Part shown: positions 19,763 through 63,161 of the stretch, piece after piece | Position numbering within the stretch: position 1 is the first letter of the stretch | Layout of the letters: each line of letters starts with the position of its first letter | Virus record (IMG/VR): IMGVR_UViG_3300045988_183421 | Source: a virus | Strand: one strand, 5' to 3' | DNA: 64,000 nt | The notes under the pieces: generated by a model | The model's input: only the letters and a program-made list of their open reading frames with translations | What the model was told of the DNA's origin: nothing | The model's database searches: none | Made by a program: the position numbers and the translations under genes

Positions 19763-19793
19763 TTGACCGTTGCTGCAAAGTAAGTAATATAAT
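19763..19793 (+). promoter_or_regulatory. Promoter family A, copy 1 (TTGACC-gttgctgcaaagtaagtaa-TATAAT). It shares the conserved spacer core TTGCTGCAAAGT with the other family-A copies.
   Basis: -35 and -10 hexamers plus the conserved spacer. A GATATAAATACA box follows. Confidence 0.55.
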
Positions 19794-19868
19794 AGATATA
19801 AATACAGCATCAAATTTCTCAGAACAAATAATAGCTATAGTCAAGCAGGTTTTGCGTTAATGTTTCAA

Positions 19869-19920
19869 CCATCCATGTCCATACGAAATATGAGAATGCG
19901 TTCATGGGTGGCATTTTTGT
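19869..19920 (+). terminator. Leader hairpin with a T-run (CCATCCATG..25 nt..CATGGGTGG cattttt) downstream of promoter A1. It could be an attenuator or terminator.
   Basis: 9-bp stem with one mismatch, followed by a CATTTTTGT tract. Confidence 0.35.
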
Positions 19921-19930
19921 GCCAAAATTT

Positions 19931-19962
19931 TTGATTGACTTTTCTGTCTTTTTGTGGCATAT
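19931..19962 (+). promoter_or_regulatory. Second promoter upstream of adhesin 2 (TTGATTGACT..TGTGGCATATT, an extended -10 variant of family B).
   Basis: TTGACT, a 17-nt spacer ending in TGTGG, and -10 CATATT. Confidence 0.4.
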
Positions 19963-20107
19963 TGTAAATATGCAATTTGATTGCTTGTGTTTTGATATAC
20001 TTTCTTATCTACAATCGAGGCTGCACACTAGGGAGTAGGTAAGGGTGTATATAAATCCGGCTGTGGTAAAACCACAGAACACTCACATTATTAGGAGGGC
20101 AACTAAC

Positions 20108-23100
20108 ATGCAGAAACCTCGTAAGCGGTTTTTGAGTGCGATTGTCGCCGTAGCAATGTGCCTGTCTCAGTTTGCTCCTGTCACTGCTTATGCAGTGGAG
20201 AGCGCGAGTGGAATCACGCAGAGTGAAGAAGCTCCGAAGGAAACTGATGCACTCAGCACTACGACAACAAACTCCGACTCTTCCGCTACTACTCCCGCGC
20301 CGAAAAGCGATGTTACCGACACAGCAAGTTCCGCGTCCAGCGACACTTCTGTGACGAGCGATGTTTCTTCTGAGGCTACAAGTCAGGCGGGGTCTGAAAC
20401 GACCACTGCCTACGCAAACAGTGCTGCCTCTGATACTGGTGCAAGCACCAGCACTTCCAGCGAAGCTTCTACCACTGGCAGCATCAGTGAAGCAGCACAG
20501 GCATTTATCGATGCGGCTAACGCCCTTGTAAGCCGTAAAGATGAAATTCTGACTGCTGCAAACAACTTCGGTCTTGCAAGCAAGGCATGGCAGGCTGACA
20601 AGGAAAACGCGGTTCTTGATGCGATGGTCACGCGTCGCACTGAGGAACTGGATGCAGTTTATGACTGGGAACCCATTGAGGACATGTATTATTCTCTGAG
20701 CGAGGATGAGCAGGTCGCAGAGCCCGTCATGAATGCATACCTTGACATGTCTGACCTGTATCTGCAGGTTTGCGACCGTCAGGAAAACCCCGTAGACAAC
20801 AGCGGTGCCAGCGCGTTTGATGGCGGCGGTTCTACGACTGTCATCGGGGACTATCAGGCAATCACCGCTGCTGAGACTGGTAAGCAGATTGCCGCAGGTA
20901 CTGGTATTCAGTATACCAAGATTAGCGGTCAGGAGAATGTTATTCGCATTCTGCCTCAGACTGTTACCTACACCTACGGTGACTCTTTCAAGTCTAAGGG
21001 TCTGACCATCGAATACAGCACTGCTGATTCCCGTACTTCTCAGGAAGTCGAAAAGGATATTCAGGCAGCTATCGACGGTCTGAGCTTCATCATGTATGCT
21101 CCGGCTGACGGCGACGGCCAGAATCCCACAGACATTCATTGCAATGCCGGTACTTATCCGACTTATGTTGATACAGGTGCCACAAGCGTTACTGTGAATG
21201 GTCTGAATTACACCATCATTGATGGTTCTAACTTGGATTCTTCCAAGAACATCCGCAATGACACGGGTGTGACTATCAATAAGCGTCAGATTTACATTGT
21301 CCCTCATACCACCTATGTTACGAAGGGCAATACTATCAGCCAGATTAACTACACCGTTATGGATACCAATGGCGGTCTGGTTGACGGCGACCTGCTTCCT
21401 GCGGATGTTCTGACCACAGAGAACTTTGATAAGGACACTACCGGTTCTTACAAAATCATCTTAGGTTCCTCCGCGAAGAGCAACACGAACTACAACATCG
21501 ACATTCAGCCCAATACCGGCGATGTGTATGTTGTCGTTTCTGAAAAGACTCTGACCCTGACTCCTGTATTTGTCTTCAAGGGCAATGATGGCGTACAGAC
21601 GACCGGCAGCAAAGCCACTCGTCAATATGGTCAGCAGAATCCTCAGGTTGACTTCGTGATTACCGGCTGGTCTGATACCGATAAGACGAATTTCGAGTAT
21701 AAGACCAACAACGAGCACAAATCCAACGCAGTTGCTCTGAAAGAGATGCTTGGTCTGAGCGGTGAACCCACCGTTGTTCTGCCCAGCATCACCTCTGCTC
21801 CAGGTGGCTATACTGTTACAATCGGCAATATCCAGACGAATGCGCCTATCAATGGTTATAACATCAACCTTGCTACCGCAACGTTTGAAATTACCAAGCG
21901 TAACGTAACCATCACCAACGACCAGATTGATGCCATCTATGGTGAGGCTGAAAAGGGCAAGTCTTCCACCATCACCTTCGACGCTGTTGCTTATAACGGT
22001 GCTGCTCAGGCAGTGGCCTCCGATAAGCGTATTGTCGCTGGTTCTGACATCACCGCTGATGACGGTGTGAACAAGCTGGTCAGCATGGTTCTGACAACAC
22101 AGCGTCAGGATATCGACAATAAGAATGTTGGCGAATATCCGATGACTGTCGAAGTTCCCCCTGCATGCACTGCTTACTATGACGTCAAGGTCATCAACAG
22201 CAAGTACATCATCCATCCTGCAATGCTGACTGTCACTCTCGATGACCTGTCCGCAATGTATGGCGCTGCTCGTTCCGGCAAGATTAAATCCATCGAAGGT
22301 TTCAAGCTGAACGATACACAGGCAAGCATCGGTTTGACCGAGGACAAGCTTGGCTTTACTATGGTAGATGCGGCTGGCAACAGCGGCACTTCTACAACTG
22401 CCAATGTTGGCGAATACACCGTCAGCGCATCTGTGCAGGGTGCTTCTCAGGAGCGTTGGTCTTCTGACTGGGACCCCAATGCCGATGGCAAGAACTACGA
22501 CCGTTACGACAACTATCTGGTTCGTTTTGTCAACAGCAAGCTGACCGTCACCAAGCGTCCTATCGCCATCAATGTGATGGGTGGTCAGACGAAGGTTTAC
22601 GGCGACAGTGATGCCAAGGGCGGCGTTGCCTTTACTCTTGACCCCGTCAATGGCAAGGGTGGCCGTGTTGGTTCCGACTTTGCTGGCTGCGTTGTGACTC
22701 GTGAGGTCGGCGAGACTGTTGGCTCTTACGCTTACAGCGATGCACAGTTCCAGACTGCTGAAATCGCCAAGAACTACGACATCACCTTCAATGCTCCCGA
22801 TAAGTACACTATCACCAAGCGTACTCTGACCATCACCGTTCCGAACCGTGAGCGTCTGTATGGCGCAGAGAATCCCAGCGATGCCGACATTACCGGCGCA
22901 CTGGAATACAAGAACTTCGCAAGCAACGATGAAATCGGCATCCATGATACCGTCGCTTCTCTGGGCGGCACTGTCACCATCAAGTATGGCGTTGACAATA
23001 CCGTTGGTAAGCTGACTGGTGTCGGTACCTATCCTATCGTTGTTTCCGGTTACACCAACCCCAACTACAACATCGTTTACACCGGTACTTACAACGATGG

Positions 23101-62085: not shown

Positions 62086-62180
62086 AAGCGACGCGGTTCA
62101 GCTTGGATGAGGCGATGAAGCGGGCAAAGTTCCTGAATTGTGGAGCTTGCCACTATTCTTGCGTACGCGTACCCGCGTAA
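61992..62180 (+). CDS. Small hypothetical protein (TTG start, or ATG at 62001).
   Basis: RBS GAGGAGG lies 8 nt upstream of the TTG. Confidence 0.45.
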   Translation: MENMYALSRKDPFFGDVRFYVECKSDTANINEATRFSLDEAMKRAKFLNCGACHYSCVRVPA

Positions 62181-62197
62181 GACAAAGGAGAAAATAA

Positions 62198-62995
62198 ATG
62201 GCAAACAATATCATGAATATCATGTCTGTTTCTTTCAATTCTCAGGCAGAGTTGGAGGATTTTCTGAATCGTGTCAAGGGAAAAGACGATGATGGCGAAA
62301 AAGATTTTTCGCTTCAGTCTGTTGTTCCTATGCCGGAATCACTGCAAATCGTATCGCCATGTGACAGGATGCTCGCATGGGCGGCCGTAAATAAATACGG
62401 AATTGACCCGGAGAAGTATCCGGAAAACGTAAGAAAGGCTATTTGCAGAGAAACTTTTCTCCTGCACAGGAAGGAAAAACTTACTGCATCAGATATGGTT
62501 GGTGTTTGCAAGGAAGCTGCGGAAGCTCGCTCCAAACTGGAACACGTGAAAGATAGCAAACTCATCAACCTGAAACGTATCCCCTATAATGTCGAAGAGT
62601 TCGATACTGTAGCGGAGCGTGCTTTGGAAAATGCCGTAAAATATGGATATGCTTCATGGTATTATTGGCGTGTCGCAAACTGGGGCGTAAAGTGGGATGT
62701 TTTTGATGTGAATATCCGTAGAATAAATGATACGGAAATTGCCATCAATTTTAAAACCCCTTGGAATACACCTGCATGCGCCATTGTCGAACTGAGCCGT
62801 AAATTTCCACACGCCAATATTCGTGTAAAATACGCGGATGAGGATATCGGAAGTAATTGTGGCTGGTATGCGCTTTGCAAAGGAGATTTTGTTGACGACG
62901 GTTATCCCAGCAAAGGTAACGCAGCAATCGATTTTGCTTGTAATATCTGGGGCTACGACGCCAATGCGTATCGTGCAGAGATGAGTTTGCTGTAA
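62198..62995 (+). CDS. Hypothetical protein of 265 aa.
   Basis: RBS AAAGGAGAAAA. Confidence 0.6.
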   Translation: MANNIMNIMSVSFNSQAELEDFLNRVKGKDDDGEKDFSLQSVVPMPESLQIVSPCDRMLAWAAVNKYGIDPEKYPENVRKAICRETFLLHRKEKLTASDMVGVCKEAAEARSKLEHVKDSKLINLKRIPYNVEEFDTVAERALENAVKYGYASWYYWRVANWGVKWDVFDVNIRRINDTEIAINFKTPWNTPACAIVELSRKFPHANIRVKYADEDIGSNCGWYALCKGDFVDDGYPSKGNAAIDFACNIWGYDANAYRAEMSLL

Positions 62996-63051
62996 GTAAA
63001 GCGAAAAAATAAAACCCCCGGAAAAAGTTGAAGCGCCACTAAATAGCTGCG

Positions 63052-63080
63052 CTTGCAAATTGCTGCAAAATCGATATACT
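63052..63080 (+). promoter_or_regulatory. Promoter family A, copy 6 (CTTGCA-aattgctgcaaaatcga-TATACT).
   Basis: Conserved element followed by GATAGATAAAATACAAT. Confidence 0.55.
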
Positions 63081-63124
63081 AAGTATATTCGATAGATAAA
63101 ATACAATTACAATTCAAAATCAAT

Positions 63125-63161
63125 ATACCGCTATCTCGTAAGAGGTGGCGGTATTTTTTGT
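63125..63161 (+). terminator. Leader terminator-like hairpin downstream of promoter A6.
   Basis: ATACCGC..(CTC-gtaa-GAG)..GCGGTAT followed by TTTTTTG. Confidence 0.6.

Follow-up and report, generated by a model that had tools for sequence, protein, structure and literature searches.

A replicon-wide family of palindrome promoters with leader terminators in a 'Hodor' megaplasmid: a possible antitermination regulon

What controls the genes that stand behind six copies of one promoter-leader element, and are these copies a local set? The window, by which we mean the whole analysed stretch of 64,000 nucleotides, belongs to a 'Hodor' megaplasmid (~350 kb), a conjugative element of human-gut Bacillota. 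The Hodor element is a conjugative plasmid that encodes ParA, ParB and ParM (PMC12934698), and the 2026 paper describing 'Hodor' plasmids makes no mention of promoters or terminators. An earlier note on this DNA had listed six copies, and all of them are present on the + strand, each promoter interval in Table 1 starting with the TTG of the -35 hexamer. The note had also placed terminator-like hairpins in five leaders. Four of these, in copies 3-6, are strong and canonical, with stems of 11-15 pairs, T-runs and leader-fold z values of -4.2 to -5.7, but the copy 1 hairpin is weak and imperfect. The proposed GATAAAT(C/A)AAA box recurs in five of the six copies at a fixed distance, starting 11-12 nt past the -10 and thus occupying +6 to +15 of the predicted transcript, except that it is shifted in copy 1; it is absent from copy 2, which has no leader terminator either.

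Table 1. Parts of the six window copies and their neighbouring genes
Feature	Position	Strand	Details
Copy 1 promoter	19763..19790	+	-35 TTGACC, spacer with TTGCTGCAA, -10 TAATAT
Copy 1 A-rich box variant GATATAAATAC	19795..19805	+	~4 nt upstream of family position; direct reading
Copy 1 hairpin, weak, imperfect, plus CATTTTTG	19869..19919	+	-13.2 kcal/mol; whole-leader z = +0.5
Ordinary second promoter TTGACT..TGTGGCATATT	~19933-19961		between copy 1 hairpin and 2668-aa gene (20045)
Copy 2 promoter alone	29739..29766	+	TTGCTA / TTTGCTGCAAAGT / TACAAT
Gene downstream of copy 2	29834-30910		lipoprotein-like
Copy 3 promoter	56065..56092	+	TTGCAT / TATGCTGCGAAGT / TATAAT
Copy 3 A-box ATAAATCAAA	56104..56113	+	+6 to +15 from predicted start A56099
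Copy 3 intrinsic terminator	56145..56181	+	13-pair stem, T-run; z = -5.6
Copy 3 next gene start	56236		ATG, after terminator and SD
Terminator of gene upstream of copy 4	57577-57608		separate, its own
Copy 4 promoter	57625..57652	+	TTGCAA / ATTGCTGCAAAGT / TAATAT
Copy 4 A-box ATAAATAAAA	57664..57673	+	
Copy 4 intrinsic terminator	57742..57781	+	15-pair stem, T-run; z = -4.5
Copy 4 next gene start	57810		GTG
Copy 5 promoter	60290..60317	+	TTGTCA / ATTGCTGCAAAGT / TATAAT
Copy 5 R1 covariance-model match	from 60323		
Copy 5 5'-terminal leader hairpin ACUAAGAUAAAUCAAAG...CUUGACUUGUUUUAGU	60324..60365	+	begins at predicted +1
Copy 5 box	60329-60338		inside leader hairpin
Copy 5 pre-terminator box TTCAAAATC	60365..60373	+	
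Copy 5 intrinsic terminator GCAGCCATCTC-AATC-GAGATGGCTGT plus T7	60381..60413	+	z = -5.7
Copy 5 next gene start	60436		ATG
Copy 6 promoter	63053..63080	+	TTGCAA / ATTGCTGCAAAAT / TATACT
Copy 6 box CGATAGATAAAA	63090..63101	+	form common to other plasmid group (GTACGATAGATAAC)
Copy 6 pre-terminator box ATTCAAAATC	63112..63121	+	
Copy 6 intrinsic terminator ATACCGCTATCTC-GTAA-GAGGTGGCGGTAT plus T-run	63125..63161	+	z = -4.2
Copy 6 next gene start	63189		TTG

The copies are real but the set is far larger than the six first described. Within 167 kb of a related 346-kb contig, at least 51 cassettes lie on one strand only; further contigs hold 41, 26 and 23, and the relatives together provide 77 distinct copies. 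The exact core was found on both strands at none of the loci of the contigs searched. In the same 167 kb, the palindromic 9-mer TTGCTGCAA occurs 46 times (0.64 expected by chance), and 45 of these occurrences are in a promoter context. The window itself contains nine copies of the core TGCTGCRAAR against 0.95 expected, a number that none of 100 shuffles reached, and a search with the 28-mer that allowed at most 3 mismatches gives three matches where none is expected. The six window sites are thus members of a replicon-wide family of regulatory cassettes with at least 50 identically oriented copies. Many cassettes stand before small genes without a recognisable family, and one leads straight into a CRISPR array.

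Each cassette begins with a host sigma-A-type promoter, in which 16 bp separate a TTGaca-like -35 from a TAtA(A/C)T -10. The spacer carries a group-specific palindrome of 9-11 bp, which in the window's group is the invariant TTGC-T-GCAA (positions 8-16); roughly three copies in four have the longer form TTTGC-T-GCAAA. This palindrome replaces the TTGCA-n6-TGCAA repeat that had been proposed, which depends on a -35 reading TTGCAA and is therefore seen in few copies. The -10 (T23 A24 ... T28) and the pyrimidine-A start (position 35), predicted 7 nt past the -10, are conserved, and neither was part of the search pattern. An A-rich, -10-like box follows at +3 to +15 of the predicted transcript, with the hexamer forms TAAGAT, CAAGAT or AAAAAT in the window's group. 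The -10-like pattern NANNAT is found at +1 to +14 in 56 of 77 copies and in 31 and 23 of 77 in later windows of the same leaders, such hexamers being common in A/T-rich sequence, which surrounds the box. A terminator is present in 58 of 62 copies with the box as opposed to 7 of 15 without it (p = 1e-4), and about 12 promoters without box and terminator still keep the palindrome.

The coupling of promoter and terminator withstands comparison with both controls. Leader terminators are present in 33/38 and 58/77 distinct copies (75–87%), as against 64 of 768 random same-strand windows (8%) and only 2 of 19 ordinary plasmid promoters of the form TTGAC-TGTGGTATAAT. The leader terminator is tied to the palindrome promoter class, unlike the ordinary promoters of the plasmid. 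The T-run typically starts near +73 (range +49 to +136) and closes a leader RNA that is short (65-110 nt) and conserved. An SD-preceded start codon mostly follows 20-40 nt past the T-run (23-55 nt in the window copies), and in the cassette copies no space for a second promoter was found between terminator and gene. This spacing suggests that the downstream gene would be transcribed solely by read-through of the leader terminator.

Several features indicate that the hairpins act in the transcript. The + strand RNA is the more stable orientation in 50 of 58 cases, G.U pairs make up 106 of the 766 stem pairs, and compensatory changes occur at 9 of 11 terminator stem pairs; judged by these patterns, the hairpins are selected as sense-strand RNA. 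The inner stem CAUCUC/GAGAUG is conserved in sequence and the outer stem covaries. Two single-stranded leader boxes, GAUAGAUAA and AUUCA(A/C)AAU, are also conserved. In the window's group, class-A leaders have little structure ahead of the terminator, and class-B leaders carry a 5'-terminal stem; such 5' stems start exactly at the predicted +1. In the full leader, the pair probability of the terminator stem has a median of 0.97 and never falls below 0.5, and these probabilities reveal no competing or alternative leader fold. Classical attenuation or a riboswitch is therefore unlikely, and a trans-acting factor would be needed.

Is this architecture a peculiarity of one plasmid lineage? Diverged relatives, only 12-23% of which is alignable (at 75-86% identity), have the same cassette layout with another spacer palindrome, TGCGA-A-TCGCA, whose position differs by ~5 bp, and with TACGAT at the start. 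A terminator is found in 78 of their 79 copies, its T-run 78-108 nt after the box start, and a 5'-terminal stem in 73 of the 79 type-II leaders. When the window is searched with a covariance model built from these leaders, its four strong leaders come out as the top four matches. In 86 kb of the 346-kb contig the model yields 19 matches, at least 13 of which directly follow palindrome-class promoters. On the strength of these matches, the leaders of both plasmid groups are homologous and form one conserved RNA family. The control-unit architecture is thus retained where the palindrome has changed.

We tentatively favour a promoter-loaded, lambda-Q-like antitermination regulon as the best reading of the cassettes. 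The earlier idea of units regulated together, through a spacer operator and at leader termination or antitermination, has gained support and is kept here, minus classical attenuation. Cassette-led genes are probably expressed only when a plasmid factor permits RNA polymerase to read through. A plasmid-encoded trans-acting factor would bind the spacer palindrome, move onto RNA polymerase held back by sigma-A at the -10-like box, and render the enzyme terminator-resistant, as lambdoid Q does at pR'. The leader's single fold is what calls for such a factor.

At lambda pR', the Q-binding element lies between -35 and -10, the sigma-dependent pause element AACGAT occupies +1 to +6, and tR' is located downstream; Q proteins of different phages are each specific for their own element. 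The cassettes share this order of spacer specificity element, early -10-like hexamer (TAAGAT or TACGAT) and intrinsic terminator. As at pR', a short leader RNA would be made unless a factor acts, and the specificity element varies between related elements. Unlike the single pR' of a lambdoid phage, cassettes number at least 50 per replicon, reside on a Gram-positive plasmid, contain a perfect palindrome, terminate just ~50-135 nt from the start and carry a conserved structured leader RNA. A phmmer search of 8162 ORFs with the queries lambda Q, NusG, RfaH and RpoD, covering about half of the plasmid, brought up no Q-like, NusG-like or sigma-like protein, and Q families are too divergent for such a negative homology result to carry much weight. 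The suggested search for a regulator of the element was equally negative among the Pfam matches listed for ~220 ORFs, which cover about half of the plasmid and were mostly scanned in pooled sets with the top 25 families listed; these matches include no antiterminator family, and neither they nor phmmer yielded a NusG paralogue, ANTAR, CAT/RBD or similar protein. Other features fit the Q-like reading poorly: perfect palindromes are seen more typically at the sites of dimeric repressors than in Q-binding elements, the palindrome is retained in the ~12 promoters without box and terminator, its position shifts between the plasmid groups, and A/T-rich surroundings make -10-like hexamers common. Moreover, the strongly conserved leader parts (P1 stem, ATTCA(A/C)AAT box and inner terminator stem) would be superfluous and suggest recognition at the RNA level instead.

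A global repressor regulon is a less likely explanation. Here, the palindrome would be the operator of a plasmid-encoded dimer that silences at least 50 otherwise strong promoters, with negative feedback and an expression burst after transfer. The leader terminators would be constitutive, partly leaky attenuators or insulators, there to limit expression and reduce spurious transcription, and no dedicated antiterminator would exist. The logic is that of IncP-1 KorA/KorB or phage P1 C1, where a single short operator is repeated in many promoters round the plasmid. In size the cassette palindrome is similar to the KorA operator GTTTAGCTAAAC and the KorB operator TTTAGCSGCTAAA, both of them palindromic as well, and the KorB operator resembles TTTGC-T-GCAAA. 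A dimer bound to the perfect 5-1-5 palindrome between a good -35 and -10 would block polymerase. The palindrome is almost confined to promoters, is found also in those without the leader module, and differs between plasmid groups as an immunity or incompatibility determinant would. As in these regulons, the element, which is conjugative and has ParA, ParB and ParM (PMC12934698), encodes a ParB-family protein. The gene of this protein, with a GERRxRA CTP motif, lies directly behind a palindrome-class promoter without terminator, where an autoregulated gene would be placed. Compared with those systems, however, cassettes are far more numerous, and their putative operator is strictly within the -35/-10 spacer and linked to a terminator in the leader. 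These terminators are strong (GC-rich stems of 11-15 pairs, then T5-T8), and to have a strong promoter run into one of them in ~80% of units would be wasteful if read-through were not regulated. A repressor also leaves unexplained why the terminator comes after rather than before the promoter, why it co-occurs with the start-region box, and why ordinary plasmid promoters have no leader terminators.

Antitermination at the RNA level is more doubtful still. An RNA-binding protein of plasmid or host, or a small RNA, would recognise the 5' box, P1 stem, ATTCA(A/C)AAT linker box and inner terminator stem and suppress the terminator, in the manner of lambda N with nut, the LoaP leader hairpin or BglG with RAT; the spacer palindrome would serve a separate DNA-binding regulator. 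This would explain why the leader RNA family, with its single-stranded boxes, sequence-conserved inner stem and 5'-terminal stem, is common to both diverged groups and the DNA palindrome is not. Conversely, class-A leaders are mostly unstructured before the terminator, recent copying of cassettes could partly account for the sequence conservation, and the protein families expected are absent from the Pfam matches listed for ~220 ORFs and from the phmmer results. HK022 put RNA, an antiterminator that acts in cis, needs neither an immediately following terminator nor a promoter operator. It resembles the cassette leader as a short structured RNA transcribed straight from the promoter, ahead of terminators (PMC8191782); the class-A leaders of the window, in contrast, have little structure. 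An RNA that acts in cis would provide no insulation, since polymerases coming from upstream would be modified as well. In Gram-positive bacteria, operons for conjugation or secondary metabolites offer precedents of leader-terminator control in conAn processive antitermination (PMC8191782), the pLS20 zipper attenuator (PMC13401043) and LoaP (PMC12691694). Two of these three systems are on conjugative plasmids, and in all of them intrinsic terminators in or near the leader restrict spurious transcription and legitimate transcripts are rendered terminator-resistant. LoaP in particular combines a small leader hairpin with a leader terminator (PMC12691694). However, each serves one operon rather than a replicon. 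In addition, conAn2 RNA is longer than the cassette leader (260-600 nt; PMC8191782), the zipper needs an alternative antiterminator fold that the cassettes lack (PMC13401043), and LoaP is a NusG paralogue, a type not found among the plasmid ORFs searched.

It is improbable that the cassettes represent chiefly selfish or recombinogenic units of promoter and terminator, with the shuffling of flanking genes as their main effect, a reading that is compatible with the others. The earlier suggestion of mobile promoter cassettes was partly right: cassettes of different loci are homologous copies of one another over ~110-140 bp including the hairpin, between unrelated flanking genes. The PeSLs of T4-type phages are a precedent, being many homologous composites of sigma-70-type promoter and stem-loop directly upstream of SD and start codon, often of small genes without a recognisable family, as behind many cassettes (PMC2839356, PMC4122927). 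Nevertheless, PeSL stem-loops lie between -35 and -10, overlap those boxes or stand just ahead of the start (PMC2839356), and therefore stop only upstream transcription, unlike the cassette terminator inside its own transcript; cassettes also have a spacer palindrome, which is invariant, and a conserved leader. Visible indels that distinguish the window from its closest relatives do not have cassettes at their ends, and an architecture kept despite changed sequence in two plasmid groups indicates a regulatory function.

It is very improbable that the cassettes are short non-coding RNA genes (65-110 nt) placed before genes incidentally. Promoter, structured 5' domain, A/U-rich linker and Rho-independent terminator are typical small-RNA anatomy, but SD and start codon follow the T-run in almost every copy without space for another promoter, which would leave the downstream genes without means of expression, and to our knowledge at least 50 near-identical small-RNA genes per replicon are unprecedented. 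Least credible of all is that the motif is no promoter and that upstream genes simply end at the hairpins, as their 3' terminators, an outcome that the earlier note had allowed for, given the conserved -35, fixed 16-bp spacer, -10 and YA start, the separate terminator upstream of the -35 in 30 of 76 copies (21 have both this and a leader terminator), the leader stems that begin precisely at the predicted +1 and the cassette that directly enters a CRISPR array.

If the Q-like antitermination reading is correct, the leader terminator would be passed only by polymerases that began at the cassette promoter, and spurious transcription and upstream read-through would be halted at every unit of a co-oriented 350-kb replicon.

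We assign the window, on its gene content and gene order, to a 'Hodor' conjugative megaplasmid rather than to a phage. Hodor plasmids, first described in 2026 and reported from over 9,000 metagenomes of human gut or wastewater, are conjugative megaplasmids of human-gut Bacillota that measure 211-389 kb and fall into two deep groups, G1 and G2 (PMC12934698). They carry, in order, a giant surface-protein gene, a ~2640-aa gene, SecY-SecG-SecE, trigger factor and sortase, together with ParM/StbA and type I-C CRISPR remnants, and many copies have been filed wrongly in viral databases (PMC12934698). 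The window encodes two giant repeat ORFs with MBG and DUF11 domains (one of at least 6557 aa, truncated where the window starts, and one of 2668 aa), SecY, SecG, SecE, a trigger-factor-like gene and a ParM/Alp7A-like gene; its sortase gene gave no Pfam match, and that assignment rests on PMC12934698. The closest database relatives are IMG/VR 'viral' contigs of 20-389 kb; relatives carry type I-C repeats and Cas8c, and related contigs measure 346-389 kb. The Pfam matches listed for the 345,980-bp relative (the 346-kb contig) include NrdD, ligase, topoisomerase, TraX, PcfJ, ParB, zeta toxin, Cas8c and TnpB, and no capsid, terminase, portal or tail family is among the top-25 matches listed for 165 of its ORFs. 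The SecY cluster comprises 1455 member sequences, with relatives on contigs of up to 382 kb, the nearest named cellular SecY is that of Gemmiger (49% identity) and the ParM relatives are located on Oscillospiraceae plasmids. A jumbo-phage promoter class, which the IMG/VR viral label had first favored, was rejected because of the lack of phage families among these top-25 matches, the plasmid functions and the Hodor gene order.

Several other features of these plasmids were observed. Related loci L020, L058, L115, L116, L128 and L012 contain mini CRISPR arrays whose repeat (...GGGTTGCGTTAGATTGAAAT) is type I-C-like; no such repeat lies in the window. At L012 (reverse strand, cassette 3445), a cassette of the class described below runs directly into the first CRISPR repeat, and other sequence stands in place of the 3' arm of its terminator. 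The leader hairpin was rejected as a CRISPR-repeat mimic because the repeat is unrelated to it. A 578-aa transposase-like ORF of the window (phrog_506) has ~76% DNA identity to a second locus of the 346-kb contig, at 247-249 kb, and resembles a copy of an insertion sequence. Opposite the two giant surface-protein genes run very long antisense ORFs (4168 and 2209 aa), which are most likely artefacts of biased repetitive codon usage and not genes.

All six promoter-leader copies of the earlier note were recovered on the + strand. The inverted repeat TTGCA-n6-TGCAA that it had placed in every copy requires a TTGCAA -35 and is seen in only a few; the universal repeat is TTGC-T-GCAA, mostly extended to TTTGC-T-GCAAA, which defines the palindrome class (type I). 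Four of its five leader hairpins are strong terminators, and the fifth (19869-19919, copy 1, ahead of the 2668-aa gene) is weak (z = +0.5). The window contains nine occurrences of the core TGCTGCRAAR, where 0.95 would be expected, and none of the shuffles yielded as many. Aligned without gaps and numbered from the T of TTG, 38 distinct copies taken from the window and from relatives gave the layout listed in the table, with a 16-bp spacer. The conservation of the -10 and of the YA at 34/35 is real because neither belonged to the search pattern. Variant -35s (TTGACC, TGGACA and TAGACA) track TTGACA, as would be expected for the main sigma factor of the host. In one subfamily (a window copy and relatives such as L007 and L022), the -10 and start region form the DNA palindrome CGATATAC-TAA-GTATATCCG, and another subfamily carries the compensated palindrome TATGCT-ATA-AGCATA; these could serve as a further operator or reflect common ancestry.

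The cassette is highly repeated and uniformly oriented. Two IMG/VR motif scans returned 27 and then 114 stretches, from which copies and orientation were counted. The 346-kb contig carries at least 51 copies within the 167 kb examined, all on a single strand and spread from 23 kb to 301 kb; further contigs carry 41, 26 and 23, and the exact core is found on both strands in none of the loci. The window is 97-98% identical to related contigs. Within the 167 kb, the palindromic 9-mer TTGCTGCAA was counted 46 times (0.64 expected), of which 45 are in promoter context, and a slightly relaxed pattern yielded 232 copies, of which 77 are distinct. A search of 185,579 species-representative genomes gave 24 matches, all due to chance and devoid of the remaining cassette parts. 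The cassette is absent from the PLSDB plasmids and GenBank phages searched, and a literature search on the motif string found only unrelated papers.

The leader terminator belongs to the palindrome promoter class. A strong hairpin with a T-run lies within 150 nt downstream of 33/38 palindrome-class promoters in the first set and 58/77 in the larger set, compared with 64/768 random same-strand windows (8%) and 2/19 of the plasmid's ordinary promoters (TTGAC(T/C)-N13-TGTGG-TATAAT). The ordinary class, in its full form TTGAC(T/C)-N13-TGTGG-TATAAT-ATAA(A/G)TA, is canonical sigma-A with an extended -10; its pattern TTGAC...TGGTATAATATAA is generic, matches more than 120 unrelated viral contigs and is thus useful as an internal control only. 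The T-run begins +49 to +136 from A35 (median near +73), usually 20-40 nt, and in the window 23-55 nt, ahead of an SD-preceded start codon. This gap leaves no space for another promoter, and thus the downstream genes would depend on read-through. A separate terminator is found within 150 nt upstream of the -35 in 30/76 copies, with both terminators in 21, and the hairpins are therefore not merely terminators of upstream genes. For 50/58 hairpins, the + strand RNA is the more stable form (-18.6 vs -13.4 kcal/mol), and G.U pairs account for 106 of the 766 stem pairs. Among 26 aligned hairpins, 9 of 11 pairs display compensatory changes, and the inner stem, CATCTC/GAGATG, shows sequence conservation. 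These measures indicate that the hairpins are selected as sense-strand RNA. In metatranscriptomes, the giant gene is co-transcribed with its three downstream genes, and SecYGE and trigger factor-sortase form units (PMC12934698); these units are compatible with the weak copy-1 hairpin and with a new unit starting from the cassette at 56065, past the sortase gene. Ahead of the trigger-factor gene, a promoter-like TTCACG-17-TAAAAT ends 4 nt before a strong terminator that lies only 23 nt from the ATG. A start inside the 5' arm of this hairpin would escape termination while upstream transcripts stop, in a PeSL-like arrangement.

The leader shows conserved RNA parts and no switch. When the complete leader is folded, the pair probability of the terminator stem has a median of 0.97 and is below 0.5 in no copy, and Rfam gave no match at the gathering threshold, only chance-level matches at E <= 1. 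A riboswitch, a zipper-type attenuator and a classical attenuator were rejected since the leader has no competing fold, and a known RNA family was rejected on the Rfam result. Read-through would thus reflect either a constitutive leak or a trans-acting factor. Pairing of the A-rich start-region box with the terminator U-tract was also rejected, as the own-versus-swapped gap is only 0.6 kcal/mol and relatedness could explain it. About 15 leaders (class B) begin exactly at the predicted +1 with a hairpin, AyyAAGAUAA...UUAUCUUrrU, in which positions +2 and +3 covary, and a box (A)TTCAAAATC precedes the terminator by 5-15 nt in 37/65 copies. The terminator accompanies 58/62 copies with the start-region box and 7/15 without it (Fisher p = 1e-4, for copies that are phylogenetically non-independent); in about 12 copies lacking both, the promoter runs straight into the SD. 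A -10-like NANNAT is found at +1 to +14 in 56/77 copies, compared with 31/77 and 23/77 in later windows.

The strongest new evidence comes from a second plasmid group, in which the same architecture is built from a different sequence (type II). Its loci, from diverged relatives, are only 12-23% alignable, at 75-86% identity, and one encodes a SecY homologue. A scan with the type-II box returned at least 120 stretches, on contigs of up to 389 kb, with copies co-oriented in each locus. A terminator follows in 78/79 distinct copies having a promoter, its T-run 78-108 nt after the box start, and a 5'-terminal stem is present in 73/79. The structured leader of ~100 nt has no Rfam entry, its terminator stems contain many compensatory changes and its start-region hexamer is TACGAT. 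R1, a covariance model built from type-II leaders, was searched against the whole window without filters, and its top four matches were the four strong window leaders, three of which start at or a few nt from the predicted start. Over 86 kb of the 346-kb contig, R1 gave 19 matches, at least 13 directly behind palindrome-class promoters. Hence a single leader RNA family spans both groups, while the spacer palindrome is group-specific. Both groups share the start-region core TA(A/C)GATA(A/G), which contains the -10-like hexamer TAnGAT. At one conserved locus of the type-II plasmids, a type-I promoter (TTGCGCAGTGCTGCAAAGTAGGTATAAT) is followed in tandem ~90 nt downstream by a type-II cassette, ahead of a gene for a 342-aa protein without a Pfam family; this suggests cross-talk of both specificities or a shared regulatory gene.

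Positions and layout of cassette parts and neighboring features
Feature	Location	Strand	Sequence or remark
-35 TTG, six type-I copies	window 19763, 29739, 56065, 57625, 60290, 63053	+	
Predicted starts (alignment position 35)	window 56099, 57659, 60324, 63087	+	
Type-I -35 start	alignment positions 1-4		TTGc
Type-I spacer core	alignment positions 7-19		T-T-T-G-C-T-G-C-A-A-A-G-T
Type-I -10	alignment positions 23-28		T23 A24 t A (A/C) T28
Type-I start site	alignment positions 34-35		pyrimidine at 34, A at 35
Type-I A-rich box	alignment positions 40-49		A40-x-A-A-A-T-x-A-A-A49
-10/start-region palindrome	window 63075-63097		
Ordinary promoters	window 28132-28160, 29086-29114, 50369-50397		variant ~19933-19961
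R1 match	window 60323-60413		24.2 bits, E = 0.019
Further R1 matches	window 56082-56184; 63087-63162; 57655-57781		
Type-II cassettes	L099, L125, L072, L059, L258-L336; e.g. L099, L261 4218-12473	L099 -; L261 +	
Type-II -35			TTGaca-like
Type-II spacer box			TGCGAAC; ideal TGCGA-A-TCGCA, also 5-1-5, abutting the -10
Type-II -10			TAgAAT
Type-II start box	~7 nt after the -10		(A)TTGTACGATAGATA(A/C)C
Type-II downstream order			variable hairpin, TCGTACAATTCACAAT, terminator, SD + ATG
Tandem type-I/type-II locus	L059 (rc 7937), L069, L099 (rc 587), L125 (4311), L072		
Region ahead of the trigger-factor gene	window 53827-53910		terminator 53859-53887
Sortase gene	window 55085-56056		
Transposase-like ORF	window 47577-49313		578 aa
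Antisense ORFs	window 4111-16617; 21461-28090	-	4168 aa; 2209 aa
ParB-family gene	L115:941-2023	-	IMGVR_UViG_3300023499_000220

What allows polymerase to pass the leader terminator? In the lambdoid promoter pR', a Q-binding element lies between the -35 and -10, a pause element (AACGAT) at +1 to +6 and the terminator tR' downstream. The cassettes resemble pR' in presenting, one after the other, a group-specific spacer element, a -10-like hexamer among the bases transcribed first and a terminator, and, as in lambda Q control, this intrinsic terminator follows the promoter and precedes the controlled genes (33/38 and 58/77 type-I copies; 78/79 type-II copies). Because the order of parts equals that of pR', we tentatively favor, at somewhat less than even odds, a promoter-loaded, lambda-Q-like antiterminator. 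Under such a mechanism, only polymerases started at a cassette would be licensed, in a ~350-kb replicon transcribed almost wholly one way, and upstream read-through would be halted at each unit. A like logic has been proposed for the terminators and conAn in pLS20 (PMC8191782).

Four points weaken the Q-like reading. No Q-, NusG- or sigma-like protein was found in the approximately half of the plasmid searched: phmmer with lambda Q, NusG, RfaH and RpoD gave no match among 8162 ORFs, Q families being highly divergent, and Q, NGN and KOW families are not among the Pfam matches listed. Furthermore, a palindrome without mismatches would be more usual for a repressor, terminator-less promoters retain the palindrome, and the conserved leader RNA is left unexplained. 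The fuller proposal, that one group-specific DNA-binding factor is loaded onto polymerase paused by sigma-A at no fewer than 50 cassette promoters and licenses passage of dedicated terminators replicon-wide, is less likely than not.

A global repressor combined with constitutive attenuators is a rather unlikely alternative. A single palindrome, a putative operator, is common to many promoters of the plasmid, as in a KorA/KorB-like global regulon. Pfam analysis of the first genes behind class-1/class-2 promoters and of terminator-less units gave no regulator but a 360-aa ParB-family protein, with a ParB_N domain and a GERRxRA CTP-binding motif, whose gene stands behind a palindrome-class variant promoter (TTTGCTGCATAG) without a leader terminator. 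This protein is the sole candidate for the cognate repressor, which would be autoregulated and KorB-like. An RNA-binding antiterminator that recognizes the leader is, in our view, unlikely.

A PeSL-like recombination cassette, which is compatible with the other readings, is improbable; many copies of a sigma-70-type promoter are intergenic, as in PeSLs, but indels relative to the 97-98% identical relatives do not fall at cassette borders (in a small sample with few indels). That the cassettes are small-RNA genes is very improbable, and that they contain no promoter at all is scarcely credible.

Among described systems, the repeated promoter/stem-loop cassettes that come closest are the PeSLs of T4-type phages, but their stem-loop lies inside or beside the promoter and outside the transcript, whereas the Hodor T-run follows well downstream of the predicted start. 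The pLS20 zipper attenuator requires an alternative fold, which the Hodor leader lacks; conAn2 of pLS20 is 260-600 nt long; and LoaP is a NusG paralogue, of which none was found for the cassettes by phmmer with NusG/RfaH or among the Pfam matches listed. Thus, PeSL, the pLS20 zipper, conAn2 and LoaP do not fit as a family for the cassette. Its single parts are of known kinds; what has not been described is their combination, the number of copies, the operators specific to each group and the RNA family of the leader.

Nothing has been reported on the transcription of Hodor's ~350 kb of uniformly oriented genes, and the words promoter, terminator and intergenic do not occur in the text of PMC12934698. 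The cassette supplies this missing regulatory grammar, with predicted starts, unit boundaries and a putative on/off logic for the more than 50 units on each plasmid, and adds a new family of leader RNAs for which a working covariance model is available. The group-specific putative operators TTTGCTGCAAAGT and TGCGAATCGCA should lead directly to the regulator, and metatranscriptomes that bear on the cassette logic are already public, among them those paired with Hodor23, 35 and 36 (PRJNA492158, PRJNA354235, PRJNA818303; PMC12934698). Hodor genomes number 38 curated and 1,625 draft sequences. If read-through is factor-dependent, the cassettes would represent a rare case of genome-wide control through licensed antitermination and would give Gram-positive synthetic biology a set of compact, orthogonal promoter-terminator switches. 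If the Q-like reading is true, no Q-type mechanism would have been known before beyond the lambdoid phages or in Gram-positive bacteria, and the cassettes would be the first such mechanism to act as a genome-wide insulation and licensing scheme, with a new leader RNA family that lacks an Rfam entry.
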